Below are positions 1 through 44,514 of a stretch of DNA of 44,514 nt, piece by piece (the first letter of the stretch is position 1; every line of letters starts with the position of its first letter). The translations under genes and the position numbers were made by a program. The notes under the pieces were generated by a model that worked only from the letters and a program-made list of their open reading frames with translations, had not been told where the DNA came from and ran no database searches. The DNA comes from a virus. The stretch lies in IMG/VR virus record IMGVR_UViG_3300022538_000610, one strand, 5' to 3'.

Positions 1-141
1 CCACCGTCTCGCCTTCGAGATGGTCTAAATTGATGAACGTATTCTCTACTTTTCGGACGGTTCCACCACCGGTATACTCATCAAAAACAGAAGTATCTAC
101 TTCCTCGCCGGATATACTCGGTGAAGCTGATGGTGTTGCAG
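1..141. repeat. Terminal direct repeat, copy 1 (identical to 44374..44514); the contig closes into a circle of 44,373 bp
   Basis: Read directly: the first 141 nt (ccaccgtctcgccttcgagatgg...gctgatggtgttgcag) recur exactly as the last 141 nt. The repeat lies inside an open minus-strand reading frame. Confidence 0.95.
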
Positions 142-1585
142 AAGGGCTTCCTGTGGGCGTGGCCGAAGGGCTTACTGAAGGCGAAGCGCTTCTTGAGGGA
201 CTTGCAGAAAGACTGGCTGAAGGCGATGCAGATGGCGTAACACTTGGTGAGGCGGATATGCTTGCTGATAGCGAAGCGGAAGGTGATGCCGAAATACTTG
301 CACTCAGCGAGGCTGATATACTGGCTGAGATTGAGGCCGAGGGTGTACCAGATGGCGAAGCCGATATAGAGGCCGAGGGAGACGCCGAAACGCTTGCAGA
401 CGGTGACGCTGAAGGACTTGCAGACACACTTGCCGACGGTGATGCTGAGACTGTCCTTGATGGACTCGCCGAAATTGACTCTGACGGTGATGCGGAAACG
501 CTTGCTGAAGGCGACGCGCTTGGCGAGGCTGAAGGCGAAGCTGATACAGACGCAGAGAGACTGGCAGAGATACTCGCTGAAGGACTTGCCGAGATTGAAA
601 CGGATATTGTACCAGATGGTGAAGCTGATACAGAAGCCGAAGGCGAAGCTGATACACTGGCAGATGGCGAAGCTGATACACTGGCACTGGGCGATGCGCT
701 TCTTGATGGACTTGCTGATAATGAGGCTGAGGGCGTTCTCGATGGGCTGGCCGATATACTTGCTGAAGGAGAAACTGAAGGGCTTGCCGATATTGAGGCG
801 GAAGGAGTAACTGAAGGCGAGACCGATATAGAAGCCGAAGGGCTTGCGCTTATAGAGGCCGATGGGGATGCCGAGGGCGAGGCCGAGGGGCTTGCAGAAG
901 GACTGGCCGATATACTTACAGATGGACTGACTGAAGGAGATGCGCTTACAGCACCCTCTGCTTGAATGGCTATTGTTATGGTTGTCCATGGTTGAGAGGC
1001 CGTCATATCAAAGGATGCCGTGCCAGTTGCGCCTGCTGTCGCCAAAGACTGATAAGCAGCGCCGCCGCAACAACTACCATAAGTAGAACCACTTTTATCT
1101 ACAGTAATTCCGGTATGACTTGAGGGGTAGCCGGAATCAACTGTTATTGCGTAACTGGCGGCTGCAAACATACGCAGAACTAAACAGTCATCTTTTGTTG
1201 TAGTAGCAGATGGGCAAGCTGGCGTGGCGTCCCAGAATGTGTCATATGTACCTACATTTATAGGATTATCGGCATCGTGGCCGGTAATTCGTAGAATAAA
1301 ACCATAAAATTGTTTGAGGTAAGAATATGTGCTCGTAAAGGTATAACTTGCTGGTTCTGACGAACCTGCGATTTTATAAAAACTATATAAAGTTTGATAT
1401 ATATTAGGCAGTGCAACGTAACGAGTCCAACCAGCAGGAGTATTTATAGGATTAGACCCTTCGGATATTATTACCGCAATAAGTAGATTGTCTTCTGCCA
1501 CTCCAGTTGGTTTGGCTATTGTAATACTTGTTGCAGCGGTTGCTACTTTTGCTTCTGCAAAACTATGATATACTGGTACTGTCAT
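1..1585 (-). CDS. Junction-spanning tail protein, 5' portion (674 aa in the circular molecule): ~212-aa beta-rich N-terminal domain followed by a 280-aa (Ser/Thr-X)140 repeat; continues at 44373..43934
   Basis: ATG at 1585..1583 ([38 protein letters not shown]...). I checked every codon of the third minus frame (plus positions 3m+2..3m+4) from 1585 down to 2 and found no stop. It is missing from the ORF track only because its stop lies beyond the left edge. The frame is continuous with 44377..43934 through the terminal repeat. Confidence 0.8.
107..946 (-). repeat. Coding dipeptide repeat: 140 consecutive (Ser/Thr)-X units (131 Ser, 9 Thr; X = A, P, V, I, L, G, R, E)
   Basis: Codon-by-codon reading. 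Every minus-strand codon whose lowest plus coordinate is congruent to 2 mod 6, from 944 down to 110, is Ser or Thr (e.g. ...[29 protein letters not shown]...). All six Ser codons are used, so the DNA is only a degenerate 6-nt periodic repeat. Confidence 0.9.
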
Positions 1586-1588
1586 TTT

Positions 1589-3805
1589 TTAATCGCTTGG
1601 ACTTGCAGAGGGACTTGAACTTGTCTCCACAAAAGACCTTAGCTCAAAAGTGTTTGTAGTTACATTGCCTATGGTATAATAATTGCCGTTAAGGTCTTCC
1701 ATCCCTTCAACGCCGTCTATATAAACCTGGTCGCCATCGCTAAACCCGTGGTCAGGGGCGGTTACTACGCCAGGGTCGGCGAATGTTATTCCTGTAATAT
1801 CAACAGGGTCGCCACCGTCAAATACCAAGCCGGAATCCACAAAGAAGGAATCCTCTAAATCAACCGATACTCTCGGTTGTAACTGCTCGATACTTCTTAC
1901 GGGAGAGCCATCTACCGTCCTTGCCACGGTAATCCATACTTCGTCTTCTGTATCGCCCGATACTACCGCCACGGATTCGGCATCACCATCACCGCCTAAT
2001 GGGTGTTTTGACCACGCCACCACATCCTGGTCTCTTTCGTAGGTCATTGACAATAAGGAACCATCGGCTAAAGTAGACCATAAAATAGCATCAGGATTTC
2101 TCTGGTAGGCAAAACTTGTAATACCCGTTAAGGTAATATGTTCCGCCAATGCCGACAGGTCTGGCGCTACGAACTTTTGTTTCTCATCGCTGAAAGTCAA
2201 CTCCCTGACTTTGCGGCCTACGTAATCTACAAAAAGCACTGCAGTCCCTACGGGTATGGGTTGAATCTTCTTACTGCCATAAGTGGATTGCTGCCTTACG
2301 TTGAAATTAGTGGGAGTAAGCTCCTCGTCAAGAGAGGTGGCCCTTATCCGCCATTCGCCACCAATAGTGCCCAGAACCAGCGCTTCCAACGCAGACAACC
2401 AACGGATAGCGTTCATTTCGTCGGATGACATTGTAAGCGTAAACGCATCGTCGTCATTAGTTCCCCCCTCGAAATTTTCGAAATCGCCGGAGGCGCTTAA
2501 CCATACCGTCTGGGGTTGATATGTAGTGCCTGCATATACCGCCCTTTCCTCAAAGAACGTAAAGGCGGCGGGATAGCCCCTGTGTGCCGACCACGCACCC
2601 TCATACCATCTTTTAGAGGCAAGGGTAGAGGCAAAGTCGGTCAAGACAGTTGCAGTAACTTGTGTTGGGCTGATATAAGTATCTATACGGACGATACCAT
2701 CCTGCGTGGGATTGTTTACGGTAAGGTCGTGGTGAACCGTTCCGCTTGTTGCAGAAGTTACATTTATTCTATACTGGACATTATCCGCATTCTCTGTGCC
2801 GGTAAATTGAATGTTCCTATCGCTATGTGAAACGAAAGTTCGGTATGTTTCCCAACCCTCTTCGTTTTCGTTTCTTTGCAGTTTGATTGTCATTGCCCAC
2901 GTTCCGTGGGTATTATAGGTGAATGTGCCTTTAACATCTATCGACGAACTTACGCCTGTGGCTGGGGCTATTGAAGTGCCGATTATCTCAGTATTTATTC
3001 TCGGTTGGGTTATTTTGAATAAAGCGCCGGGCAAAGATATATGGCTTGGGTCAAATACGGCAGCCGAGGCGGTGAGGGTTATACTGCCCGTCGTAGCGCT
3101 TGGAGTTATGGTTATATCATCGTCGTTCTCCAAGTCGTTTCTTGGAAGGAATGGCCCTTTGTTAAAGGGTATCGTTGATAAATCAAATGAAGTTGTTGTG
3201 GTTCTCGTTAATTTACGGGGTGCATATTCGGGATGGACAATCCACATTACGTCGGCGGACTGCCGGGATTGCAACTCGAATAAATCCGACTCTATATAAG
3301 GACTTGGGGTCTCTGCTATCGGCTCGTTATTATCGGTAAGGTCGGCCACTACCCAGTCGGTAAAGTTAATAATTGGTTTTTCGTGGTCGCCTGTCTCGGC
3401 ATCATTTGCATCGGACGTATGGGCAACGAGACATCTGTAAATAACACTGGAGTATGTAACGAACTGCCCTATGATATAAGTGGTATCGTCTGCCCAGTTG
3501 GTAGGTGTTGTTGAATCTATCACTCTACCACCATCGTAAAATGCCCTTATATATTGTGGGCCGAACTCTGAAATATAAGCGATAGTATCTGAATACTGGA
3601 AAGATACCAAACGGCTCTTTTCAGAGGCGTTCTTAACATCACCGATATACTTAGTGCCAGGCCGCCTTTCGACGCTGCCGTATATTCTCGGAATGAAATC
3701 CAGCAAGGTTCGGCAGCCCGAAGAATACTTGCCCACGTCGGAACGGGCATCTATCTGGGGACTTAATACACCTGCATTAAAGGATATTAAGGGGATGTTT
3801 GCCAT
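1589..3805 (-). CDS. Tail tubular protein B (T7 gp12)-like nozzle protein, N-terminal and central part
   Basis: 738-aa ORF. The N-terminus FNAGVLSPQIDARSDVGKYSSGCRTLLDFIPRIYGSVERRPGTKY parallels the T7 gp12 N-terminal pattern (GGISQQPD.R...G....N......G..KRP). The C-terminal small barrel VVTAPDHGFSDGDQVYIDGVEGMEDLNGNYYTIGNVTTNTFEL is the E1-FCCH-like insert seen in podovirus tail proteins. The protein ends ...SSSPSASPSD followed by TAA. Confidence 0.65.
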   Translation of the reverse strand: MANIPLISFNAGVLSPQIDARSDVGKYSSGCRTLLDFIPRIYGSVERRPGTKYIGDVKNASEKSRLVSFQYSDTIAYISEFGPQYIRAFYDGGRVIDSTTPTNWADDTTYIIGQFVTYSSVIYRCLVAHTSDANDAETGDHEKPIINFTDWVVADLTDNNEPIAETPSPYIESDLFELQSRQSADVMWIVHPEYAPRKLTRTTTTSFDLSTIPFNKGPFLPRNDLENDDDITITPSATTGSITLTASAAVFDPSHISLPGALFKITQPRINTEIIGTSIAPATGVSSSIDVKGTFTYNTHGTWAMTIKLQRNENEEGWETYRTFVSHSDRNIQFTGTENADNVQYRINVTSATSGTVHHDLTVNNPTQDGIVRIDTYISPTQVTATVLTDFASTLASKRWYEGAWSAHRGYPAAFTFFEERAVYAGTTYQPQTVWLSASGDFENFEGGTNDDDAFTLTMSSDEMNAIRWLSALEALVLGTIGGEWRIRATSLDEELTPTNFNVRQQSTYGSKKIQPIPVGTAVLFVDYVGRKVRELTFSDEKQKFVAPDLSALAEHITLTGITSFAYQRNPDAILWSTLADGSLLSMTYERDQDVVAWSKHPLGGDGDAESVAVVSGDTEDEVWITVARTVDGSPVRSIEQLQPRVSVDLEDSFFVDSGLVFDGGDPVDITGITFADPGVVTAPDHGFSDGDQVYIDGVEGMEDLNGNYYTIGNVTTNTFELRSFVETSSSPSASPSD

Positions 3806-4302: not shown

Positions 4303-5526
4303 TTAAGGTGCAAGGTCGGCAATAACAACACCATCGGCGTCATCATCTGTCGGATATGCAGTATGCCCCCTTAATTCGCCGCCCGAATCCACCCATAAAT
4401 AGTAAGGATTACCACCATCGTCATACAATACCAATGCACCAGGTTTGTTATCAGCGCCACCATCAAGAATATGTACTATATTCTCTGTGTCATCTGATGT
4501 GTTTCCGAATAAATAGTCGTGTCCCGTCGCCTCTATATGCAAATCGCCGTCGCCATCGGTGTAAAAATCAGTTTCATCATCAGTATCAGTATGTGTAAGT
4601 CTTAACTGCGGGTCGGTGGTGCTTACTATCTCAACAAAAGTGTTGAATCTATGTCCCGTCGTAGCCCCATAATCCATATAACCATCGGCGAGGGAATCTA
4701 TGTATTCATTTCTATCGTCCTGAGTAAAACAGAGTTTGTCTTTTACAAGGATTTTGCCATTGACTTCGAGTTTATCCTGGGGAGCAACTTCGTTGATACC
4801 GACATTGCCTCCAAAAAAGGCGTTGCCGCCTACGGAATAAATTGCATAGTTGGTTGTGCCAGCGTCTATGTTTGCAATGTAAATACCGTAGTTGGTAGTT
4901 ACGGTGCCGCCATAGGCATCTCCGATATAAAGGCCATAAGCATTGGTTGCAATCATACCAGTCTCTACCTCGGCACGACCGAACATTGCATAAATATTAC
5001 TATTGGTTTTGCCAAGCGAAGGGGTGAAAACCATACCATAAGCATCAGTGTCAACTTCTGGATTTAAAGAACCATCAACGTCCATCAATCGGTCGTCTGT
5101 TATTGCGCTATCATCACCTATTGCTAATTGGTCGCAGGTTATATCGCCTGTTACATTAACATCGCCCGTAGCTGTTATATCAACCCAGGACGGGCTGGCG
5201 GTAGTAGCAAGGGTCTGGTCGAGTGTGCAGTCTGCTGTAACTGTAAGGTCAGCGTGAAGGGCAAGGGTTCTATTTGCGCCGTCAACAGTCAAATTAAATG
5301 TTCTGTTTGCTGCATCATCTTCGTTCCAGAGGATACTTAAATAATGTGATACATCAGTATCATATAAACCAAGACCCGGCGTAAAAACAGCGGAGGTAGC
5401 AACTAATGTGACAGCGGTAACTATACCACTTGTGGTTAAATCTCTTGTGGTGTCTGTCCAATCTATATGCTCGTTGGATTCGTAGCCAGGCAGTAAATCG
5501 TGGGGGATTATAGGGAAAATTTGCAT
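4303..5526 (-). CDS. Tail fibre protein
   Basis: Start moved to the internal ATG at 5526 (MQIFPIIPHD...), which forms a TAATG overlap with the upstream stop and has AAAGGA upstream. Contains the fibre-typical motif GNVGINEVAPQDKLEVNGKI and long Thr/Asp/Gly-rich beta-like stretches. Confidence 0.7.
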   Translation of the reverse strand: MQIFPIIPHDLLPGYESNEHIDWTDTTRDLTTSGIVTAVTLVATSAVFTPGLGLYDTDVSHYLSILWNEDDAANRTFNLTVDGANRTLALHADLTVTADCTLDQTLATTASPSWVDITATGDVNVTGDITCDQLAIGDDSAITDDRLMDVDGSLNPEVDTDAYGMVFTPSLGKTNSNIYAMFGRAEVETGMIATNAYGLYIGDAYGGTVTTNYGIYIANIDAGTTNYAIYSVGGNAFFGGNVGINEVAPQDKLEVNGKILVKDKLCFTQDDRNEYIDSLADGYMDYGATTGHRFNTFVEIVSTTDPQLRLTHTDTDDETDFYTDGDGDLHIEATGHDYLFGNTSDDTENIVHILDGGADNKPGALVLYDDGGNPYYLWVDSGGELRGHTAYPTDDDADGVVIADLAP

Positions 5527-8500
5527 TATTTCATATCCTTTTGTATAAAACAAATGTTAGGATAAAATGCTACAGAACTTACTTTCTCCGTTAGGCAAAT
5601 ATCGTCTATTAGAGTGTGTATTTTATCTATAATTATAGGCTTATAACCTGGTTGTTTTCTGTTATGGCCTATGTCTTCTAAAACGTATATTCCGTTTTTT
5701 GCAAGGTGAGGCCATAAAGTTTCCAAACTTATCACCATAGATTCAGGGTCGTGGCAACCGTCGTCTATAATCAAATCAAATGGCCCGTGCCTGGCAACTG
5801 ATTTAAGAAATTTAACATCGGCCTGGTCACCTACAAACAATTTCAAGTCCTTATTCCTGCGAAGAATCCTTTCCTGAGATACGTCCCTTATGTCTATGCC
5901 GAAAATCTTCGCTTTCGGAAATGCCTTTTTCCACACTAATAAAGAGGCGCCTCGCTGGACGCCTATTTCCAATATCTTGATACGCTCATTGTATAAACCG
6001 TTTAAGTGCCGGTCATACAAATGGGTATAGTTATGATGCCAGTATTTATTGGTAGCCCTGAAACTCATTTTTATAAATTGCTGCACGGCGGCATTTTCTA
6101 TTCTGCCGTTGCTTCTGGCGTCTATTAAGTATCGCCTTTGCTTAAAGTCGGCAAGAGTACTAAATATGCGCACGGGAACTTTTTTATAACCAAGATGTTT
6201 TGCGATAACCAACCTGCGATAACCCCTTATTATTACCCGCTCCTTTTTGTTCTTGTAAGCATCCAGCGGGGTTTTTAGTCCATTGTCCCGTATATCTTCA
6301 TATAACGATATTGCATCCCGCATTTTTTCTTGGACTCGCATTGCGCCTTTGGGGGTCAAGGGGTCTCTTGTGGCAGGGTGGAGATGCTTGACGAGATAAT
6401 TGTAATAAGGCAAATCCTTTAATTCTTCGTCTGTGTATGTTTTACCAGCCACAAGACTCTCAATGAACGGCGAAAAAGTTTTAAGAAATTCATACCCGCC
6501 CCTGGGATTGTCCGGTTGCCTTTTATTAATGTTGTAGTGCTTAATAAAATTGTCATCACGGAAGGTTTTATTTATATCGAACTCCCGAAGTTTGAATTTA
6601 TACAAATACCTGTAGTCAACGCCGTTTTTATAGGTTAAAGTATTTGTTTTTTGCGACAGGATGCTTGCCTGACCCCAATACGGTATAGTAGATACCCGCT
6701 TTCCAGTTGTGCCAGTCCATCCTTTGTGCATATTCTTGTTGTGCCGAATATTTACAATTGGCTGTTCGGTACTAAAAGTCTCCCACTTTCCCCTCTTGAA
6801 AGTTAAAGGACGATTTTTGCCGTGTTCCACACCGTCTTTCCACTCCGGTTTTCCTGCCAATCTATTCCTTAACTCCTTCAGTAAAAACTGGCGCTCTCCT
6901 ATCAAAGAACATTGCGAAGCAGAACTCTTGCGCAGAAAGGACGGTTTTTTCGTATCAAAAATCCAAATATTAGAATTAAAATATGCCCTATCGTCTTTCG
7001 GTGGGATGTAATCGAAATGTTCCGGCGGATATAAACAATCCGATTCGGCAATTGCTACATAAGGAGAGGTTGCTTTTTCTATACCAAGCAGCATTTGCCT
7101 TAATATGTTATGCCCCGAACAACCAACTTTGCCGACACAAATATTTTCGCCGAAATCCAATGGTTCTTGAGAAACAGAAATCAATTCCGCCCCTTTTATA
7201 GACCGTATAAGCTCCTGCCTCGTATATTCGGCGAGCGATTCTTTTTCCTTATTGGCCGTTATATAAACTACCGATATTTTTGACCAGCCGGGCACGGGGG
7301 CGAATTTGTCTATTAGCCATTGGAACTTTTTCTTTGCGTGCGGCCACTTATCGCCTATCCACAATTCTATCGACCGTGCCATAGACTTCGGTTTTTCCCT
7401 GGCACCTAAACTGTAACTCGACTTACCCCGATTCCAGTGGGCATACCAGGTATTCTTATTGACGAGAACCCGACCGCCAGATAGCCACGTCATACAGGAT
7501 ATTTCAACCCCTTCCTGCCCGAATGTTCCGTGTTTTTCATCTAACCCGCCCCAATCCAGGAACTGTTTTCGCCCCATTAACCAATTAGAGCCGGAAATGG
7601 TCATTGTCTCGCCTATATCCTCATCTTTATGTTTTTCGGCGTACTCAGGCCACGCCAGACCCCTTAAACCACCCTTTGGGTCAACGTCCGGGTGCGAAAG
7701 GTAGCGATAAGGGCAGTCTGTCCGTTCCCGACGTTTCCAGTTCTTTGATTCCAGTTCATATCTCATAGCAAGAACGGTATTGCCTGGCCTATAACAGTTG
7801 ATAAGCACCTTATCTATCCCCTCAGCCACTATGCAGTGGGCATCCAGCCTCATCAGATACTTGCCACGAGCCGTTTGCGCCAGCTTGTTAATCATCGGGC
7901 GCATACCAATTCGTTCTTTGCTGTGGCACAAGATAACTCTGGGGTCTTTTTTGAGTTCTGGCGAATAACCGTCTAATCCTACGACAATCTCAAAGTCGGT
8001 CTTTAGTTTGGCAAGGCAGTCGTCAATGGTTCTCTGAAGGTATATTTCATTGCGGGCGGGGATAATCACCGACAATAAAGGATTGGTAGTCTTTGTCTTT
8101 TTTACCTCCCAGGTAGGTACGGGCGCAAACTTCTCTAACAGCCATTTGAAAGACCTTTTCTGCTGCGGCCACTTATCATTCGTCCATAAATCACGAGAGT
8201 ATTTTCTGGCGTTCTCCTGGTCGCTGCCCTTTATCTGGTAGGGGAAAGTAAACTCTTTCGTAGTGCGGAACATATGGGCAAACCATGTCTTCCTATTGAC
8301 TACGTGCCTGCCGCCCGACAGCCACGCCTTACAGCCTACCTCTACGCCAACCTGACCCCAACTGCCGTGCTCTTCGTCCAGGCCACCTAATTCTAAAAAT
8401 CTATCTCTGTGCTGGAACCAGCAGGCGCCAACGCCGTTCATAATATCGACTATATCACCTTTCGCTTCCGGCCTCTTTGTGTACCTGTACCAATATTGAA

Positions 8501-9029
8501 CTTTCAGGTTCTTATCGAAGTACATAAAGTCGGTCTTCTTGTGAAGGCGGGGTTTCCATACATATTCAATTTTCAAAGAGCCTTTGCATTCAGGGCAGAC
8601 GTTTTCTTTGTGCGGGTCGAATTTGTCTTGATAAGACCTACGGCTGCATTTTACGCACACCCAGTCGAAGGCGTGGAGATTGTACATTCTCGGTATTACA
8701 GTCCAGTCGTACTCGCAGTCAGCGGCGAGTTTAATATCGAAGCCCTTATCGAACATTGAATGGCCATCGGTCTTGAGAATATATTTACCTCTGGCCATCT
8801 GGGCGGCTTCGTTTACCGCCCGCCTCTGGCCTACCGGCTCTGTATGATGAATTAGAGTTACTCTCGGGTCGTCTATGATATTGGGGTCAGGCCAGTAGCC
8901 GTCGAGAATAGCGATGATTTCTATATCGCCTTCAGCGGCCTCTAATGTAGATTCTATCGTTTTCTTTAATAGAAACTCATTACGGGCTGGAATAATAATA
9001 CTTATTTTATTATTTGACGTATCACGCAC
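5526..9029 (-). CDS. Multi-domain glycan-building enzyme: two ppGalNAc-T-like GT-A glycosyltransferase domains, a third GT-like domain, a ParB/Srx-like domain and a class I SAM (sugar O-)methyltransferase-like domain
   Basis: 1167-aa ORF with a probable GTG start that overlaps the upstream stop by 8 nt. GT motif pairs: ISIIIPARNE/LSVIIPARNE; DxH in KTDGHSMF/RLDAHCIV; FLELGGLDE/FLDWGGLDE; WGQVGVEVGCKAWLSGGR/FGQEGVEISCMTWLSGGR; TWFAHMFR/TWYAHWNR. ParB-like segment: IIRGYRRLVIAKHLGYKKVPVRIF. Methyltransferase motifs: ILEIGVQRGASLL...IFGIDI...DLIIDDGCHD...IYVLEDI. Confidence 0.8.
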   Translation of the reverse strand: MRDTSNNKISIIIPARNEFLLKKTIESTLEAAEGDIEIIAILDGYWPDPNIIDDPRVTLIHHTEPVGQRRAVNEAAQMARGKYILKTDGHSMFDKGFDIKLAADCEYDWTVIPRMYNLHAFDWVCVKCSRRSYQDKFDPHKENVCPECKGSLKIEYVWKPRLHKKTDFMYFDKNLKVQYWYRYTKRPEAKGDIVDIMNGVGACWFQHRDRFLELGGLDEEHGSWGQVGVEVGCKAWLSGGRHVVNRKTWFAHMFRTTKEFTFPYQIKGSDQENARKYSRDLWTNDKWPQQKRSFKWLLEKFAPVPTWEVKKTKTTNPLLSVIIPARNEIYLQRTIDDCLAKLKTDFEIVVGLDGYSPELKKDPRVILCHSKERIGMRPMINKLAQTARGKYLMRLDAHCIVAEGIDKVLINCYRPGNTVLAMRYELESKNWKRRERTDCPYRYLSHPDVDPKGGLRGLAWPEYAEKHKDEDIGETMTISGSNWLMGRKQFLDWGGLDEKHGTFGQEGVEISCMTWLSGGRVLVNKNTWYAHWNRGKSSYSLGAREKPKSMARSIELWIGDKWPHAKKKFQWLIDKFAPVPGWSKISVVYITANKEKESLAEYTRQELIRSIKGAELISVSQEPLDFGENICVGKVGCSGHNILRQMLLGIEKATSPYVAIAESDCLYPPEHFDYIPPKDDRAYFNSNIWIFDTKKPSFLRKSSASQCSLIGERQFLLKELRNRLAGKPEWKDGVEHGKNRPLTFKRGKWETFSTEQPIVNIRHNKNMHKGWTGTTGKRVSTIPYWGQASILSQKTNTLTYKNGVDYRYLYKFKLREFDINKTFRDDNFIKHYNINKRQPDNPRGGYEFLKTFSPFIESLVAGKTYTDEELKDLPYYNYLVKHLHPATRDPLTPKGAMRVQEKMRDAISLYEDIRDNGLKTPLDAYKNKKERVIIRGYRRLVIAKHLGYKKVPVRIFSTLADFKQRRYLIDARSNGRIENAAVQQFIKMSFRATNKYWHHNYTHLYDRHLNGLYNERIKILEIGVQRGASLLVWKKAFPKAKIFGIDIRDVSQERILRRNKDLKLFVGDQADVKFLKSVARHGPFDLIIDDGCHDPESMVISLETLWPHLAKNGIYVLEDIGHNRKQPGYKPIIIDKIHTLIDDICLTEKVSSVAFYPNICFIQKDMK

Positions 9030-9909
9030 TGCCTAACTGTGAATCTAATCTGCCCCGATTTGACGCCCTTGCCTGATTCCACGTATTAAACGGAATCCGT
9101 CCGGCGTTGCTCTGCTCCTGTCTATCCATTGCCCTGACCTTTGGCATTAGCAACTTGAGGTCGTCTTTAATGGCTTGATATAATTTTAAGTCTTGCGCTA
9201 TTGGCATTACCAGTTTAAGGGCAAGCTGCAAAGTCAGAACCTCTATGAATAGCGGGTCGAAGTCGGTTACGGTAGTTACCTGCTTGGTATACCTTACGTC
9301 TATAGTGCCACCGATTTTACCACTTGCCCCGCTTACACCGCCCACGCCATCATCAGGTGCGCTTGCCAATGTAACTGTGTTCGTATTAGTGTAACCAGTT
9401 ATCTGATACCATCCGATGGTAAGATTCGTACCGGAAGATAAGTAGATGTATTTATCTACCATCGCCTCTGTGAAACCGCCATTGGCCGAAGTCAATATTG
9501 TTATACCAATACCAGCCGTTGCGCCGTCAGTTATACTCAATATAAATTCGGCCTCATCTGAAAGCAGTTCACTGCCTTCAAGGGCATAAGGATAAATAGT
9601 GTTTTGCCTCAATGTGGAGTTGTCTTCATAAACAGACCTGAAGGCAAGAAAATCGGCGGGAAGAATATAACCGTAATTCCATTCAAAGTCGGGTATGCTA
9701 TGCGTTTCAATCTTCGCCCTTGCCCCTGCGAACCGCCACCAGTAAGACCTCAACAGCGCGTCTCTGGTCTGCTCGTAATGCAAGTTGCAAAGGGTAGCGG
9801 TTACATCTGTGCAGGGGTCGGCAGTTATCTGTGCTTCAGTAACTCTCTTTGCGCCAATTCTGCCTAATGCAAGATTGCATATATCAGTTTTGCTATCTGG
9901 AGAAGCCAT
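9022..9909 (-). CDS. Tail tubular protein A (T7 gp11)-like adaptor
   Basis: The N-terminus DICNLALGRIGAKRVTE....LLRSYWWRFA resembles the gp11 pattern VNDILASIGEPPV...IQSRGWTFN. The gene lies downstream of the capsid genes and upstream of the tail genes. Confidence 0.6.
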   Translation of the reverse strand: MASPDSKTDICNLALGRIGAKRVTEAQITADPCTDVTATLCNLHYEQTRDALLRSYWWRFAGARAKIETHSIPDFEWNYGYILPADFLAFRSVYEDNSTLRQNTIYPYALEGSELLSDEAEFILSITDGATAGIGITILTSANGGFTEAMVDKYIYLSSGTNLTIGWYQITGYTNTNTVTLASAPDDGVGGVSGASGKIGGTIDVRYTKQVTTVTDFDPLFIEVLTLQLALKLVMPIAQDLKLYQAIKDDLKLLMPKVRAMDRQEQSNAGRIPFNTWNQARASNRGRLDSQLGSA

Positions 9910-12484: not shown

Positions 12485-13405
12485 TTACACAGTGTCAAGG
12501 GAAATCTCAACCACTGCTGGGCCTTCAACTCTGGTGGCGCCAAGGGACATCTCGACATAAACTTGAGTCGAGTAGTTCTTGTCGTCTCGTTCCGTAATAC
12601 GAACTGTGGGTTCTTCAGAAATTGCGAGGACAATCGCATCCTGTGCAAAAGCGTAACAGGTAGTAGCGTCAGCGTTTTCAGTATCGGCAACAAGTCTTGT
12701 ACTCATAAGAAACTTGAAGCCCATATAAGAATCAATCTGACCCTGTGCTAAAGCCTTTACAGTATTATAATCGGAACTTTTAACCTCTGTGGTATTGAGT
12801 AACTGGTTGATGTTGTACGGGTTAGTTGCAAAATACCTTTGACGTGCGGGGTCAATATCCGCATCGTCAAGTAGTTGCTTACAGGTGAGCAGTTTGGCGA
12901 TAGTCAAGCCTGTCTCTGCACCAGAATCGGTGGTGTTAGAGCCAGCGGCAATGATTGTGCCGTTGTCCTGAACAAGCCGACATTCGCCAACGGCGTAGTT
13001 GTAAATCTCAGTACCTGTGTGCCCACCATAAGCAGAACCGCCCAACGCTGTGATAATCACATCGTCAATCGTACGGTTGAACGCCATTACAGCGTTCTGG
13101 GCGTAAGTTGATTGGGGGTCGATAAGCATTTTGAGCCTATCAACATTGTCAATCAAATCAGCCCAGTTGTAGTCTGCCATCGTCAACTTTCGTCTGGAGT
13201 GCGGAGTGGAGATAAGCGGCGTGTCACCGTGTCGTGCGCCTATCAACTGTGCTTCGGTAGCACCGATGCGCTCAACATACAGAGTATCGCCGGTTACGTC
13301 CTCCATCCTGCAAACCTGACGCAGTACAGACTCCTTCTGCTGGCTTAACAGCAGAATATTGGCCTTGAACTGGTCAACGAAGGCAGTAGTAATCTGAACA
13401 CTCAT
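12485..13405 (-). CDS. Major capsid protein
   Basis: 306 aa. The N-terminal pattern VDQFKANILLLSQQKESVLRQ...YVERIG...RHGDTPLISTPHSRRKLTMADYNWADLIDNVD is the conserved pattern of a widespread podovirus/HK97-fold capsid family. The gene follows the scaffold gene and has a strong AGAAGGAG Shine-Dalgarno sequence. Confidence 0.75.
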   Translation of the reverse strand: MSVQITTAFVDQFKANILLLSQQKESVLRQVCRMEDVTGDTLYVERIGATEAQLIGARHGDTPLISTPHSRRKLTMADYNWADLIDNVDRLKMLIDPQSTYAQNAVMAFNRTIDDVIITALGGSAYGGHTGTEIYNYAVGECRLVQDNGTIIAAGSNTTDSGAETGLTIAKLLTCKQLLDDADIDPARQRYFATNPYNINQLLNTTEVKSSDYNTVKALAQGQIDSYMGFKFLMSTRLVADTENADATTCYAFAQDAIVLAISEEPTVRITERDDKNYSTQVYVEMSLGATRVEGPAVVEISLDTV

Positions 13406-28317: not shown

Positions 28318-29211
28318 ATGAAGTTACATAGTTACCCAAAAGTTTACGCATTGGGACACGCAGCAATAAAAGAATTATTCTTTGACCCCGTTAGTGTTGA
28401 AGAAAAAATAGATGGCAGTCAATTCAGTTTTGGCCTTGTAGATGGCAATCTTAAATGCCGAAGCCACCATCAAGAAATAGACATAGACTGTCCGCCCCAA
28501 ATGTTTGCTGGGGTTGTGGGAACTGTTATTGATTTAATGCCAGACCTACAAGAAGGTTGGGTTTATCGGGGAGAATGCTTAAACAAGCCCCACCATAACA
28601 CGCTTTGCTACGATAGAACCCCCAAAAACAACATTATCATTTTTGATATAGATGTTGGGATAGAAGATTATCTTATCCCGAGAATACGAAGAATCACAGC
28701 AGAAGCCCTCGGCTTTGAATCTGTACCTATATTTTATGAAGGACAGATTGAAAATTATGAAGAAATGAAAAAGTTTCTGGACGAGAAAAGCTGTTTGGGT
28801 GGTACGCAGGTTGAGGGATTAGTTTTTAAGAACCCCCACCGCTTTGCCAGAGACGGCCACGCACTAATGGGCAAATACGTTAGGGAAGATTTCAAAGAAG
28901 TCAACCAAGCAAATTGGCGACAACAAGGTGGTAAGTATATTATCCAGCAAATAGGGGAATCGTACAAGACAACCGCCCGATGGAACAAAGCTATACAACA
29001 TCTCAAAGACAAAGGCGAATTACTAAACGAACCCAAAGACATAGGGGCGCTGTTGAAAGAAATAAACAAGGATGTTTTCGAGGAATGCGCTGAGGAAATT
29101 TCACAAAAACTGTTTAAGTGGGCCTGGAAAGACATTTCTCGAATTATCACAAGGGGATTTCCTGAATGGTATAAGGAAGAATTAGCAAAGAAGCAATTCA
29201 AGGAGGTTTGA
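28318..29211 (+). CDS. ATP-dependent ligase (RNA-ligase-family nucleotidyltransferase)
   Basis: Motif I EEKIDGSQFSF (KxDG), motif III-like WVYRGECL, motif IV EGLVFKN, motif V GKYVRE. There is no OB domain. AAGGAGA Shine-Dalgarno sequence. Confidence 0.7.
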   Translation: MKLHSYPKVYALGHAAIKELFFDPVSVEEKIDGSQFSFGLVDGNLKCRSHHQEIDIDCPPQMFAGVVGTVIDLMPDLQEGWVYRGECLNKPHHNTLCYDRTPKNNIIIFDIDVGIEDYLIPRIRRITAEALGFESVPIFYEGQIENYEEMKKFLDEKSCLGGTQVEGLVFKNPHRFARDGHALMGKYVREDFKEVNQANWRQQGGKYIIQQIGESYKTTARWNKAIQHLKDKGELLNEPKDIGALLKEINKDVFEECAEEISQKLFKWAWKDISRIITRGFPEWYKEELAKKQFKEV

Positions 29212-31456: not shown

Positions 31457-31699
31457 ATGAAAACCCGAAAAGGAACAAGAAGATTTAGCCAGTCCAATAA
31501 GCGGCTGCCACCCGAAGCGGACGATGGCAGGCGGCTTGCGCTGGATATAAATACCCAGCGTATTCAAGAGATAGAGAAATTACTCCGCAAGGCGGGAGTT
31601 AAGCCCTCTACAGACGGCTCAGCAGCCCTGGCAGATAGCATAGAACAAAGCAAGGAAGCGAAAAATGGTAGCGATAAAATATGTCCAATTGGAATCTGA
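31457..31699 (+). CDS. Hypothetical protein (80 aa)
   Basis: ORF track. Confidence 0.5.
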   Translation: MKTRKGTRRFSQSNKRLPPEADDGRRLALDINTQRIQEIEKLLRKAGVKPSTDGSAALADSIEQSKEAKNGSDKICPIGI

Positions 31700-32504
31700 T
31701 GCTTTTTTATCTGATATAGATTTTCAACTAATGACAGCCGAACAGCGGGGCGTTTACTGGACTATTATTTTGTATCTATATCGCAACGGGGGCAAAATGA
31801 GATTTGATAAAAACAGCCTAACCAAGTTGTGTAATGTTAGTAACGATTTCGGTTTCCAAACCGTGTTAAGCAAGTTCCAAGTTCGGCGGGGTTTCATTTA
31901 TCACAAAAGAGTAACCAAAGAACTACAAAGAGCACAACTCAAGCGAGAGCAAGCAGTTATGGCTGCCCAAAAACGATGGGGAAGCAATGCGAACGGTGAT
32001 GCGGACGCAATGCCAAGTGAAGTGAAGGGAAGTGAAGTGAAGGGAAGTGAAGATATTAACTATGTAGAAGGAAAAATCATTGGTTTGACGAATGAACAAC
32101 TTTTGGAATGGCAGAATACTTTTCCTTTGGTGGATGTTTATCAAGAAACAAAATCAGCCACCCAATGGTTGCGAGACAATCCAGATAAAAGCAGTAAGAA
32201 AAATTACAAAAGGTATTTTGGGAATTGGTTGCGAAAAGAGCAGGGAAAACAACAAGACAAAGCGAAACTTGCTGTCGGCCCGCCAAAATGTAAGCGTTGT
32301 GGGCGTTTGGGTTATGTTTGGGGTGTAGATGATGCTGGTCAAAAATACTGGATGTGTAAAGAACATACTCCTTCCGCCCAATTACCCACAAACATACTTA
32401 ATTCTATTTTGAATAAAATACCAACAACAAGAGGAATTACTAAAAAAGATGCAGAACTCGAATTTAGCGACAAACAACAAAGAGCGCTATCGTCGCTATC
32501 GTGA
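31665..32504 (+). CDS. DUF1376-like replication/primosome-associated protein
   Basis: The N-terminus YVQLESDAFLSDIDFQLMTAEQRGVYWTIILYLYRNGGKMRFDKNSLTKL matches the DUF1376 pattern (y.gDfl.dt..Ls.ee.G.Y..Ll...w..gg.lp.d...l). Confidence 0.55.
   Translation: MVAIKYVQLESDAFLSDIDFQLMTAEQRGVYWTIILYLYRNGGKMRFDKNSLTKLCNVSNDFGFQTVLSKFQVRRGFIYHKRVTKELQRAQLKREQAVMAAQKRWGSNANGDADAMPSEVKGSEVKGSEDINYVEGKIIGLTNEQLLEWQNTFPLVDVYQETKSATQWLRDNPDKSSKKNYKRYFGNWLRKEQGKQQDKAKLAVGPPKCKRCGRLGYVWGVDDAGQKYWMCKEHTPSAQLPTNILNSILNKIPTTRGITKKDAELEFSDKQQRALSSLS
32016..32052 (+). repeat. 15-nt tandem repeat x2.5 (agtgaagtgaaggga) encoding SEVKG-SEVKG-SE
   Basis: Read directly inside the DUF1376-like gene. Confidence 0.9.
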
Positions 32505-34660: not shown

Positions 34661-35050
34661 ATGGAAATCAAAGATAGTGGCAAGAGAGAAAAATTCGAGA
34701 CAGGTTCTCAAAGGGATATTCGCACTGGCAAGGGTAGGTTTGATTTAATAAGCCCGTTTGCCCTTAAAAGGCTTGCCAAGTGGTATGAACTCGGTTCTCA
34801 AAAGTATGGCGACCGTAATTGGGAGAAAGGCCAACCGTTAAGCCGGTTTTTGGATTCGGCATTACGCCATCTCAATGACTATCACCAAGGCCTTGAAGAC
34901 GAAGACCACTTGATGGCTGCAGCCTGGAATATATTTGCCATTGTACACGGCGAAGAAATGATAACCAGAAGTGCTTGGCCGAAAGAGTTAGATGATTTAC
35001 CTAAATATCCTTGTCGCTTAAAAAACAAAAACCGAAAGGATAAACAATGA
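34661..35050 (+). CDS. dATP/dGTP pyrophosphohydrolase-N-terminal-like (DUF5664-type) protein
   Basis: GKGRFDLISPFALKRLAKWYELGSQKYGDRNWEKG...FLDSALRHLNDY..GLEDEDHLMAAAWNIFAI matches my recollection of that family's pattern (KyD.gK.r..l.p....l..va.v...G..KY....W..g.......A..RH......g..D.e.g..hl.a...n..f). Confidence 0.5.
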   Translation: MEIKDSGKREKFETGSQRDIRTGKGRFDLISPFALKRLAKWYELGSQKYGDRNWEKGQPLSRFLDSALRHLNDYHQGLEDEDHLMAAAWNIFAIVHGEEMITRSAWPKELDDLPKYPCRLKNKNRKDKQ

Positions 35051-35526
35051 ACGATTCAAGTGTAGCACTGAATATCAAAGAGAACACTGAAACAAAAGTT
35101 AACGAGGCGAAGGGGGTTGTTGAGTGGAAAGATATTGATAATGAGTTGTTTTATTTTGCCCACCCTTACACGCGCCTGAATAAGTGGGCGCAAGAGGCGA
35201 ATTTTAAGTTGTGTTGTGTGAGAACGGCAAAACTAATTAGTCTTGGTTTCTGGGTTTACTCACCGGTTGTACATACGCATCCAATTCATTTTGTCTGGCC
35301 CGATTTTCTTGATTTTGATAATGATGAATGGGGACGGTGGATGCAATTGAATAGAATTATTATCAAGCGCACCAACTTTACCGGCCTTATCCTCGCACCT
35401 GGCTGGAAAAAATCAAGAGGATGCCAGGAGGAAAAGGACTACTTTGAGCAACTACAAAAACCAATATTCCTTTACGATGATATTGTCAATGCGGAGCGAA
35501 ACAATGCCAAGAAAAAAACGACATAA
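35047..35526 (+). CDS. DUF1937-like (nucleoside 2-deoxyribosyltransferase-fold) protein
   Basis: LFYFAHPYT....ANF.....TAKLISLGFWVYSPVVHTHPI...W..WM.....II.....GLILAPGWKKSRGCQEEKDYF....PIFLY. Confidence 0.5.
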   Translation: MNDSSVALNIKENTETKVNEAKGVVEWKDIDNELFYFAHPYTRLNKWAQEANFKLCCVRTAKLISLGFWVYSPVVHTHPIHFVWPDFLDFDNDEWGRWMQLNRIIIKRTNFTGLILAPGWKKSRGCQEEKDYFEQLQKPIFLYDDIVNAERNNAKKKTT

Positions 35527-36238: not shown

Positions 36239-37010
36239 CTTGCATTGTGGACATAGAATAGGTCTTACTCCACCCGATTGGTGGTATGACGATAGGGTAG
36301 CAACGGGACGTAATGCCAAAATAGCCAAATATCAGAGGGAGTTGTGGAATTGGTATGCGGCAGTAATACAAACATTACAGCCCGTTGATTATCTTGTTGT
36401 GAATGGAGACGCTATTGATGGCAAGGGGGGCAAGTCAGGTAGTTCTGAACAAGCACAGGCAGACAGAAATGAACAATGTAAAATGGCAGTCAAATGTATA
36501 GACATAGTTAAAGCGAAAGAAGTTGGGATAATCTACGGCACACCATATCACGCTGGCACAGAAGAAGACTGGGAATTTACAATAAGCGAGATGGTTAAAA
36601 CGCCAGTGATGTTTGTGTCAGGCCAAGAGTTTTTTAAGCTCAACGGTGTTATCTTCGACTTCAAGCATAAGATTAGTAGTAGCACAATCCCGCACGGGCG
36701 CTTTACGGCGATAGCCAGAGAAAAATTGTGGAATATAATCTGGAGTAGTCGAGACCAGCAACCGAAAGCGGATTTTATTATCCGCAGCCACGTTCATTAT
36801 CATATCATAGATACAGACCCCGCCGGCGGATGGGTGGGGATAATAACACCTGGTCTACAAGGATTTGGTTCAAACTACGGCGTTAGGCAAGTTTCGTTTA
36901 CGATTGATATAGGGTTGATTTATTTTGACGTTAAGGAGAACGGACAATGCGACCAAAAAACAAAACTCGCCACCCTCTCACAACAGAAAGCATTGATTAC
37001 ATCCCGCTAA
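36198..37010 (+). CDS. Metallophosphoesterase (calcineurin-like)
   Basis: ATG after AAAGGAG. Motifs VVISDLHCGH, VVNGDAIDGKG and IRSHVHYH. Confidence 0.65.
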   Translation: MATRKFKRLVVISDLHCGHRIGLTPPDWWYDDRVATGRNAKIAKYQRELWNWYAAVIQTLQPVDYLVVNGDAIDGKGGKSGSSEQAQADRNEQCKMAVKCIDIVKAKEVGIIYGTPYHAGTEEDWEFTISEMVKTPVMFVSGQEFFKLNGVIFDFKHKISSSTIPHGRFTAIAREKLWNIIWSSRDQQPKADFIIRSHVHYHIIDTDPAGGWVGIITPGLQGFGSNYGVRQVSFTIDIGLIYFDVKENGQCDQKTKLATLSQQKALITSR

Positions 37011-37492
37011 ATGTTCCGGTTCTAACAAAAGCAGACCTACAACGAGAGCCAGCCAAACCGCCAATTGGCCTTTTGCCTTGTGGTGTTTATTGGCAGTTGG
37101 GGCACAGTAGGAAATATAAAGCAGAGGCAAGACATAATCACAAAAGGTATTACTTGGGTTCTTTTTATACCGCCGAAGAAGCAGAAAAGGCCGTCAAAAA
37201 GTTTAGAGAAACACATCCGCTTCCTAATAGGTTGGTATATAGTGCTGCGCAAAGGCCAGCCTTGGGCGGTTCATCTAAATACAAAGGGGTGTCTTTTAAT
37301 AAGTTTAATAAGAAAGATTCAAAATGGGTGGCGAAAATAAGGCCTTGTGGGAAAACCAAATGTTTAGGAAACTTTCCTGAAACAAAAAAGGGCGAAAAGC
37401 AAGCCGCTCTTGCCTATGACAAAGCGGCAGAAGAGCAATGGGGTGAACACGCCAAACATAACCAATACTGGTTTCCAGAGGATTTCAAATAA
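36947..37492 (+). CDS. AP2-domain DNA-binding protein (two AP2-like repeats)
   Basis: YKAEARHNHKRYYLGSFYTAEEAEKAV and YKGVSFNKFNKKDSKWVAKIRPCGKTKCLGNFPETKKGEKQAALAYDKAAEEQWGEHA. AAGGAGAA Shine-Dalgarno sequence. Confidence 0.65.
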   Translation: MRPKNKTRHPLTTESIDYIPLNVPVLTKADLQREPAKPPIGLLPCGVYWQLGHSRKYKAEARHNHKRYYLGSFYTAEEAEKAVKKFRETHPLPNRLVYSAAQRPALGGSSKYKGVSFNKFNKKDSKWVAKIRPCGKTKCLGNFPETKKGEKQAALAYDKAAEEQWGEHAKHNQYWFPEDFK

Positions 37493-43933: not shown

Positions 43934-44514
43934 TCATCTTCCTGTTTTGTCAACTCTTGGTATTATCGCCCTTACCGTGCAGGGGAAGGGACTGTCGTTT
44001 GTGATAACAAAGTCGTCTTCAACATTAAATCCGCCGTCGGCGATAACTAATTTCTCTCCTGTGAATAAACCATCGCCCCAATCCGGTATCGTATGCAGAT
44101 TGTCGGTATCGTGGCCGTATTTGGCATTTTTCGTATTCAGAAAACTTATCGTAACCTCTGAAAACTTCTTGATACTGCCGAGCGTAGTTCCCGTTGCCGT
44201 ATCAATATCCAGTCGCATTGGTTTTAATACAGACATATACCGCAACCCCACTACGGCTTTTCTAACAAAGTTATGTGCATGGGGGTCTAATTCCATTAAA
44301 GTAATAGCCCCACCCGAAACGACTTCATCATCATATTCTCTGGTAACATCGTCAACGTCAGTGCCTTGAATAACCACCGTCTCGCCTTCGAGATGGTCTA
44401 AATTGATGAACGTATTCTCTACTTTTCGGACGGTTCCACCACCGGTATACTCATCAAAAACAGAAGTATCTACTTCCTCGCCGGATATACTCGGTGAAGC
44501 TGATGGTGTTGCAG
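43934..44514 (-). CDS. Junction-spanning tail protein, 3' portion: C-terminal ~180-aa domain resembling the C-terminus of gp12-like nozzle proteins (44374..44514 duplicates 1..141)
   Basis: The frame is open from the right edge to the TGA at 43934: ...[48 protein letters not shown]...LFTGEKLVIADGGFNVEDDFVITNDSPFPCTVRAIIPRVDKTGR. The tracked start (GTG at 44377) is only the first start-like codon inside a longer open frame. Confidence 0.8.
   Translation of the reverse strand, partial: ATPSASPSISGEEVDTSVFDEYTGGGTVRKVENTFINLDHLEGETVVIQGTDVDDVTREYDDEVVSGGAITLMELDPHAHNFVRKAVVGLRYMSVLKPMRLDIDTATGTTLGSIKKFSEVTISFLNTKNAKYGHDTDNLHTIPDWGDGLFTGEKLVIADGGFNVEDDFVITNDSPFPCTVRAIIPRVDKTGR
44374..44514. repeat. 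Terminal direct repeat, copy 2 (identical to 1..141)
   Basis: Exact 141-nt identity with the window start, counted base by base. Confidence 0.95.

Follow-up and report, generated by a model that had tools for sequence, protein, structure and literature searches.

A strictly alternating serine repeat in a split tail nozzle gene of an uncultured phage and its co-occurrence with a GalNAc-transferase-like enzyme

Introduction

In Gram-positive bacteria, the serine-rich repeat proteins (SRRPs) GspB, Fap1, PsrP and SraP are built from units of the SASESAST type and are glycosylated in the cytoplasm by dedicated glycosyltransferases (GTs) encoded nearby. These adhesins carry an accessory-Sec signal peptide and are held in the cell wall by an LPXTG anchor, and their modification is primed by GtfA/GtfB, enzymes of the GT-B fold and family GT4. 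Here we describe a related arrangement in the virus record IMGVR_UViG_3300022538_000610, a stretch of 44,514 nucleotides that we refer to, at its full length, as the window. A phage tail protein encoded there, gene B, contains 140 uninterrupted (Ser/Thr)-X dipeptide units (S-X repeat), and 4 kb upstream, in the same tail-gene block, lies the gene of a 1167-amino-acid (aa) enzyme whose glycosyltransferase domain resembles polypeptide GalNAc-transferases (GalNAc-Ts). We consider it rather probable that the repeat is a mucin-like, O-glycosylated tether by which a binding domain is held out from the tail nozzle, a reading in which we infer the glycosylation.

SRRPs and gene B alike have Ser at every second position over hundreds of residues, in a stalk that projects a binding region; in both cases a modifying enzyme is encoded nearby, and cytoplasmic glycosylation, established for SRRPs, is what we propose for the phage. 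The phage differs from SRRP systems in its carrier, a tail protein that lacks a signal peptide, and in its enzyme, which is of the GT-A fold and GalNAc-T-like. Neither an accessory-Sec signal peptide nor an LPXTG anchor was found in the gene B termini, and Pfam and PHROG scans of the 31 larger open reading frames (ORFs) of the window found the GT-A enzyme and no GtfA/GtfB or SecA2/SecY2. In staphylococci, Ser-Asp (SD) repeats are glycosylated by SdgA and SdgB, which shields the stalk from proteases (PMC3794999). Like gene B, these proteins have a long stretch in which Ser strictly occupies every other residue, and they too are paired with dedicated glycosyltransferases, but their X is Asp, their enzymes are unrelated and they are bacterial surface proteins. 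SRRPs, the subject of PMC6973325 and PMC7948813, and SD-repeat proteins are the closest functional analogues, with different enzymes, export route and anchoring.

The nearest solved relatives of the enzyme, by profile and by fold, are the polypeptide GalNAc-Ts of animals and protists (CAZy GT27), with which its motifs align. Their mucin-type substrates resemble the phage repeats in being long, Ser/Pro-rich and tandem. Unlike GalNAc-Ts, the enzyme of the phage lacks a ricin-type lectin domain, a membrane anchor and a Golgi context and carries a four-cysteine insertion, and the phage repeats are 96% Ser rather than Thr-rich.

Among viruses, the A064R protein of chlorovirus PBCV-1 is a GT-GT-methyltransferase polypeptide that builds an N-linked capsid glycan. 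Like the phage enzyme, it is a single viral polypeptide with two GT domains and a methyltransferase, and it acts on a virion protein; the likeness is one of analogy only, since A064R belongs to a eukaryotic virus, its glycans are N-linked and its domains are unrelated. Glycosylation of mycobacteriophage virions was reportedly described by Freeman et al. in Cell Host Microbe in 2023. According to the summary in PMC12619734, phage-encoded glycosyltransferases of mycobacteriophages modify the phages' own structural proteins, with glycans at the C-termini of capsid and tail-tube subunits; the long dipeptide-repeat tethers seen here have no counterpart there. We found no other phage precedent cited. 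Phage S-X repeats accompanied by such an enzyme, mucin-like virion proteins and GT27-like phage enzymes are undescribed in the literature that we searched, which excluded subscription-only articles.

Architecture of gene B

The first 141 bp of the window recur exactly at its right end (44374..44514), and from this terminal overlap we conclude that the contig is circular, with a length of 44,373 bp. The genome is podovirus-like. Because it is circular, gene B wraps the origin: its ORF leaves the window at the left end, resumes at the right end and stops at 43934, for a total of 674 aa. Both the circularity and the run-off had been missed in the earlier note on this DNA, which was made from the sequence alone. 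Residues 1-213 form a beta-sandwich domain, residues 214-493 the repeat and residues 494-674 (181 aa) a nozzle C-terminal domain, and the genes adjoining gene B are all on the minus strand. The parts of gene B and the overlap are as follows.

947..1585, minus strand: N-terminal all-beta sandwich domain of gene B, about 213 aa, start ATG at 1585 (AlphaFold2 [AF2] model, profile and fold searches)
107..946, minus strand: (Ser/Thr)-X repeat, gene B residues 214-493 (codon count, composition, Pro spacing, DNA-repeat analysis)
1..106, minus strand: first part of the nozzle C-terminal domain of gene B, residues 494-528 (circular closure, translation)
43934..44373, minus strand: rest of the nozzle C-terminal domain, to residue 674 and the stop codon (PHROG 376, alignments to L003 and 8ck1_A)
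44374..44514, no strand: assembler overlap, an exact copy of 1..141 that holds the last ~11 repeat units (sequence)

Translation from the ATG at 1585 and a codon count place 140 (Ser/Thr)-X units at 946..107, with 131 Ser, 9 Thr and no break in phase. The lowest plus-strand coordinate of every hydroxyl codon is 2 mod 6, from 944 to 110, and beyond either limit the phase is lost, the codons at 950 and 104 encoding A and E. Each of the six Ser codons occurs (TCA 37, TCG 32, AGT 21, TCT 20, AGC 14, TCC 7). These counts agree exactly with the earlier note, which had placed the repeat as a stalk within a tail protein, holding an N-terminal domain of ~212 aa away from the nozzle. Gene B is indeed a tail protein and the repeat does tether that domain to the nozzle, but by homology the protein is the C-terminal fragment of a split nozzle, its last 181 aa being a nozzle domain.

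The start of gene B, MTVPVYHSF..., coincides with the beginning of the globular beta-sandwich domain, and the protein ends in ...RVDKTGR. The AF2 model of the N-terminal domain is all beta, with a pLDDT (predicted local distance difference test) of 85 and a pTM (predicted template modelling score) of 0.86. A profile search places the domain in a family with 33,485 representative proteins at E<=1e-3, often present in 2-8 copies in large proteins. Among the predicted viral structures of BFVD it has 81 matches at E<=1e-3, with TM (template modelling) scores up to 0.83, and these include minor tail proteins of mycobacteriophages. Pfam and the PDB sequences gave no match, and the search against PDB folds gave nothing significant (best E=5.6e-3, TM 0.2); we therefore leave the domain as a probable binding module. 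A match to PHROG 13624, 'hydrolase' (E=6.6e-4), was rejected as too weak and as having no support from the fold search.

A glycosyltransferase-methyltransferase in the tail-gene block

5526..9029, minus strand: 1167-aa multidomain enzyme, proposed modifier of the S-X repeat (Pfam, PHROGs, PDB profile, AF2, Foldseek)

The enzyme has two GT-A domains (Glycos_transf_2), at residues ~9-310 and ~318-590. A ParB-like domain occupies residues ~897-970, and the Methyltransf_24 domain lies at ~1017-1127. Its orthologue in the relative L001 is 79% identical. A profile built from 21 GT-domain sequences was compared with the PDB, and the top 14 matches were all polypeptide GalNAc-Ts (best E=8.5e-13). The AF2 model of GT domain 1 (pLDDT 93.2) gave a concordant result in Foldseek: there were 529 significant matches, of which the top 50 were all GalNAc-Ts (E=2.7e-15, TMq ~0.66), comprising GalNAc-T1, T2, T4, T7, T10 and T12, PGANT9 and Toxoplasma GalNAc-T3.

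The similarity extends to the motifs, at identities to GalNAc-Ts of only 15-20%. The columns of the DxH motif and of a downstream His are invariant in both GT domains; D88-x-H90 of the enzyme aligns to LDAHCE of GalNAc-T1, and H252 is the invariant His. The Gal/GalNAc-T-like motif is also recognizable, with sWGqqGvEvacktWlsGG...ahlfR of the enzyme aligned to iWGGENLEISFRIWQCGG...GHVFR. Domain 1 carries in addition a conserved four-cysteine insertion around C125..C148, between the halves of the GT-A fold, which resembles a zinc ribbon and is missing from the second GT domain and from animal GalNAc-Ts. Because of this insertion and the absence of a ricin-type lectin domain, we liken the enzyme to GalNAc-Ts and do not assign it to GT27. 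Two further observations concern its remaining parts: a segment of ~215 aa (~590-806) has no family match and is absent from the L001 orthologue, and a ParB-like segment, of nuclease type, is present within what is otherwise a sugar-modifying enzyme.

In metagenomes the enzyme family comprises 3,312 clusters at E<=1e-5, with members often fused to CmcI/Methyltransf_24 methyltransferases. A tblastn search of 50,697 GenBank phage genomes gave no match to the enzyme, and among species-representative genomes it occurs only on contigs of metagenome-assembled genomes (MAGs), with scattered taxonomy. Homologues lie on some long MAG contigs, namely a 568-kb contig assigned to Saccharibacteria (L123) and contigs of 100 and 190 kb assigned to Gammaproteobacteria (L134 and L135); S-X runs stand beside the enzyme gene in L123 and are absent in L134 and L135. 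Some copies of the enzyme may therefore reside in prophages or cellular genomes.

Co-occurrence of the enzyme with S-X repeats

We looked for (S/T-X) runs in every frame, on both strands, of 61 viral loci that encode relatives of the enzyme (35-79% identical). In 51 of these loci there are runs of 15 units or more, in 84 ORFs with 11,525 units altogether; the longest single run has 242 units, and the richest ORF has 490. All of the long runs are on the same strand as the enzyme. The nearest carrier lies within 3 kb of the enzyme gene in 42 of these 51 loci and within 100 bp in 11, while the ten loci that have no run every one end within a few kb of the enzyme gene. Other genes are shared with the window phage in only 8 of the 61. 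The carriers are non-homologous, ConA-like lectins (Laminin_G_3) and DUF2341 proteins being among them. Across all carriers the hydroxyl position is Ser in 96.5% of the units, and X is P (31%), A (17%), I (10%), V (9.5%), L (9%) or E (8%).

One carrier recurs. It has an N-terminal domain of ~120 aa, which matches nothing in Pfam or PHROGs, and the rest of the protein, up to the C-terminus, is an S-X tail; its gene ends less than 100 bp upstream of the GT gene (L053 8001..9113, L057 3061..4209, L058 8277..9800 and L064 7467..8780). Together the two genes look like a substrate-enzyme pair.

As a matched control we took 35 loci from an alignment search with the nozzle, with a run threshold of at least 20 units; an earlier control anchored on tail tubular protein A had yielded 6 loci, mostly contigs of the enzyme set, and was replaced by the nozzle search. 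No run of at least 20 units was found in the 31 control loci that lack the enzyme (476 kb). Four control loci have the enzyme, and three of these contain such runs, the fourth being cut at the nozzle (Fisher p=6e-4). In an independent set of MAGs, same-strand S-X runs are present in 14 of 26 enzyme contigs.

It had been supposed from the repeat alone that it is a scaffold for dense O-glycosylation or an extended spacer. The GalNAc-T-like enzyme nearby, and its co-occurrence with S-X runs in many unrelated phages, lend strong indirect support to the idea that the repeat would be O-glycosylated. The further remark that such a repeat is unusual for a phage structural protein is apt for deposited phages, given the enzyme's absence from all 50,697 records, but among uncultured phages that carry the enzyme S-X runs are the rule.

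These data also bear on a simpler account, in which the repeat serves as a flexible or disordered spacer without any modification and the glycosyltransferase acts on a host surface polysaccharide, a lipid carrier, DNA or another virion protein. Low-complexity linkers rich in Ser, Pro and Ala are common and function as spacers without modification, and the ParB-like domain of the enzyme is of a type that is usually associated with DNA. Phage glycosyltransferases are, moreover, known above all from DNA glucosylation and serotype conversion, according to the summary in PMC12619734. This account would, however, have to treat as coincidental that long runs are found in essentially all adequately flanked enzyme loci and in none of the 31 related enzyme-free loci. 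It leaves unexplained why non-homologous carriers often abut the enzyme gene and why the closest relatives of the enzyme are without exception protein O-glycosyltransferases, and a spacer has no need for Ser at strictly every second position through 140 units. We regard it as unlikely, and favor modification of the repeat by the enzyme.

Composition of the repeat

At the X positions of the gene B repeat A is the commonest residue (54), ahead of P (41), V (16-17), I (15), L (5), R and G (4 each) and E (1). Over the 280 residues, Ser and Thr make up 50% and Pro 15%, so that the segment is Pro/Ser/Thr-rich, as mucin-like domains are. Pro recurs at a spacing of 4 or 8 residues, and the most frequent tetrads are SASP, SPSA and SISA. 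Pro at +1 or +3 of the hydroxyl residue is the sequence context preferred by GalNAc-Ts, and 82 of the 140 Ser/Thr sites have it.

Strict alternation of Ser with A, V, I or L is also the pattern of an amphipathic beta-strand, and the repeat might then be an ordered fibre, for example a silk-like stack of beta-strands, Ser lining one face and hydrophobic residues the other. We consider this quite improbable. Pro occupies 29% of the X positions at the spacing just given, which is incompatible with long regular beta-sheets, and the length of the repeat varies freely among orthologues, from 85 to 140 units.

The split nozzle

1589..3805, minus strand: gene A, 738 aa, N-terminal ~85% of the tail nozzle (PHROG 376, PDB 8ck1_A, Pfam)
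1583..1591, minus strand: A/B junction TAA-AAA-ATG, both genes in the same frame (sequence, relatives L001 and L077)

Both genes match PHROG 376, 'tail protein', whose profile has 712 positions: gene A corresponds to positions 7-571 (E=4.6e-163) and the last 182 aa of gene B to positions 557-710 (E=1.6e-20). Gene A is also similar to PDB entry 8ck1_A, 'Tail Nozzle' (E=1.4e-75). The gene B C-terminus aligns weakly to residues 672-827 of that entry and, with 46% identity (E=8e-37), to residues 984-1141 of the unsplit, 1141-aa homologue L003. Gene A and the gene B C-terminus thus jointly cover the profile of the podovirus nozzle family (8ck1, PHROG 376), and from this shared coverage we conclude that the nozzle gene is split. 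By these alignments gene B is the C-terminal fragment, to which the sandwich domain and the repeat have been added at the break. In contrast to the podovirus nozzle, there are two polypeptides here, with a putative binding domain and a 280-aa tether at the break; neither split nor repeat was found in more distant nozzle homologues, and L003 and L004, both unsplit, also lack the N-terminal domain.

The break falls after an E1_FCCH-like domain (gene A residues 678-724). A short S-X tail, ...ETSSSPSASPSD*, closes gene A, and its sequence before the stop codon is ...FELRSFVETSSSPSASPSD-TAA, with the start of gene B three bases on. The combination of N-terminal domain, S-X repeat and nozzle C-terminus recurs in three related contig lineages besides the window, L010 (the L001 contig), L013/L014 and L047, with 96, 85 and 89 units respectively. 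Over the resulting range of lengths the pattern is conserved, and the orthologues retain it while the identity of the flanks is 50-60%.

We examined the junction in two relatives. In L001, which is 76% identical, the counterparts of A and B are out of frame and a 69-aa ORF lies between them (8287..8496); in L077 (the contig of L013) a homologous ORF of 79 aa separates the nozzle halves (12667..12906). The two intervening ORFs share the motif 'KWLALAP.IKKH' and overlap the stop of A and the start of B. These junctions make two genes, probably translationally coupled, a better reading than read-through, and the junction in the window is probably a coupled stop and restart that remained after loss of the small ORF, which might itself be a remnant of whatever split the nozzle gene. 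Reassignment of the stop codon at A/B was set aside, since a whole ORF separates A and B in the relatives.

Read-through of the TAA, or a sequencing error there, would make A and B a single polypeptide in which the sandwich domain is a loop inserted between a short and a long S-X linker. The common frame, with only TAA-AAA between the genes, and the short S-X stretch at the C-terminus of gene A (SSSPSASPS) fit this idea. The TAA is, however, also present in an independent assembly, and TAA is the least leaky of the stop codons. Stand-alone homologues of the N-terminal domain begin at the residue equivalent to the gene B start, and a single polypeptide is hard to reconcile with the shifted frame in L001 and the intervening ORFs of both relatives. 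We therefore hold read-through to be highly improbable and treat A and B as two genes.

Nozzle genes of this family carry other insertions. Gene A contains a CBM_5_12 carbohydrate-binding module at residues 103-134 (~96-160; E=2.5e-8), which is missing in the L004 nozzle and is replaced in L003 by another large insertion. The nozzle homologue of L007 is interrupted elsewhere, as a 392-aa ORF (5395..6570) followed by an 861-aa ORF (6574..9156) that starts GNIMSFFEHTRLWEHF. This last case suggests that nozzle genes are recurrent targets of insertions and splits.

Reading frame and assembly of the repeat

Four ORFs overlap the repeat in other frames (30..965 plus, 81..989 minus, 304..687 minus and 394..810 plus), as had been noted from the sequence. 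The minus frame of gene B, which the earlier note had taken to be the real one, is borne out: it runs continuously into N- and C-terminal domains that have homologues, and the architecture recurs in relatives. Since the 6-nt periodicity leaves several frames open, gene callers can be misled; a public call on L109, the independent contig that breaks inside the repeat (5841..6491, equivalent to ~965..315 of the window), is a wrong-frame, 216-aa minus-strand gene, opposite to the nozzle gene there.

The longest exact DNA repeat inside the region is 21 nt, in keeping with the earlier statement that long perfect repeats are lacking, and a repeat this short argues against assembly collapse. Tandem Repeats Finder reported only degenerate periods of 12, 24 and 36 nt (65-90% matches). 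It had also been proposed that the DNA avoids recombination-prone repeats, and this did not hold up: in 500 random synonymous back-translations of this peptide the longest repeat averaged 15-16 nt, against 21 observed, and duplicated 12-mers numbered 10-18, against 38 observed (p about 0.02). The DNA is thus slightly more repetitive than chance, which is consistent with old duplications that have since drifted. A Logan assembly of run SRR7716471, made independently, is 100% identical to the window across 6,491 nt; its contig spans repeat positions 946..315 (632 nt, 75% of the repeat) and ends within the repeat.

That the repeat is an artefact, through low-complexity misassembly or a wrong frame such as the D/E/A/G-rich plus-strand ORF 30..965, is hardly credible: one independent contig does break within it and four further frames are open, but no exact repeat is long enough to mislead a k=141 assembly, two assemblies agree over the 632 nt, the minus frame connects, with no frameshift, two domains that have homologues, the S-X pattern persists in the diverged orthologues and the neighboring genes are all on the minus strand.

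Proposed mechanism and implications

We propose that gene A forms the nozzle body and that the last 181 aa of gene B supply the missing C-terminal domain, by which B would be fixed to the tail tip. Neither a signal peptide nor a membrane segment is evident in the enzyme sequence, so the enzyme would act in the cytoplasm. There, as a soluble protein of the phage, it would O-glycosylate the Ser/Thr hydroxyls of gene B in the host cell ahead of tail assembly, and the fused methyltransferase would methylate, and so cap, the sugar. The glycosylated tether is expected to be a stiff, hydrated, protease-resistant and mucin-like 'bottle brush', holding one binding domain per nozzle subunit tens of nanometres off the tail tip. 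The projected domain could then make the first contact with the host envelope or the surrounding matrix.

The co-occurrence data extend this proposal beyond the window. The co-travelling of enzyme and repeats in dozens of unrelated uncultured phages suggests an undescribed sugar-coating system for virion proteins. On balance we lean towards a hitherto undescribed mucin-type O-glycosylation in many uncultured phages, in which a soluble GalNAc-T-like enzyme, often fused to a sugar methyltransferase, would modify (Ser-X)n tethers. These tethers, of 50 to nearly 500 units per protein, would be carried on virion proteins as different as nozzle fragments, lectin-like fibres and the small products of genes beside that of the enzyme.

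Several considerations weigh against this reading. We infer which sugar the enzyme uses, its acceptor and even its protein target, and other acceptors are conceivable for GT-A enzymes of this fold. Thr is generally the residue preferred by animal GalNAc-Ts, while the repeats here are 96% Ser, and Pfam finds in the enzyme only Glycos_transf_2, Glyco_tranf_2_3 and methyltransferase domains, with no ricin-type lectin domain. The co-occurrence could arise from a shared host group or habitat without an enzyme-substrate relation, and many of the loci are near-duplicates, so that the counts overstate their independence. Assembly of the gene B C-terminal domain with gene A, which we expect, rests on homology to unsplit nozzles.

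If the proposal is correct, tailed phages across many lineages known only from metagenomes build long mucin-like tethers with their own GalNAc-T-like enzymes, and their particles carry sugar-coated 'fishing lines'. This would go beyond the few-site capsid glycosylation so far shown only in mycobacteriophages and would add a layer to host finding, matrix adhesion and protease resistance in phages. A dedicated glycosyltransferase paired with a serine-repeat stalk is a known principle; the phage setting is unexpected and apparently widespread. The eukaryotic mucin-initiating enzymes would gain relatives in viruses of prokaryotes, which would bear on their origin. Compact, soluble enzymes for cytoplasmic O-glycosylation with a simple repeat acceptor would be attractive for bacterial glycoengineering, and puzzling low-complexity ORFs that gene callers mis-frame, as in the wrong-strand call above, would be accounted for. 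The split nozzle would be a core tail protein broken into two genes so that one long tether can display an extra module.

Other features of the window

No integrase was seen among the window ORFs scanned. The early region, on the plus strand, encodes an RNA ligase (28318..29211), a DUF1376 protein (31665..32504), a DUF1937 protein (35047..35526) and an AP2-domain protein (36947..37492).

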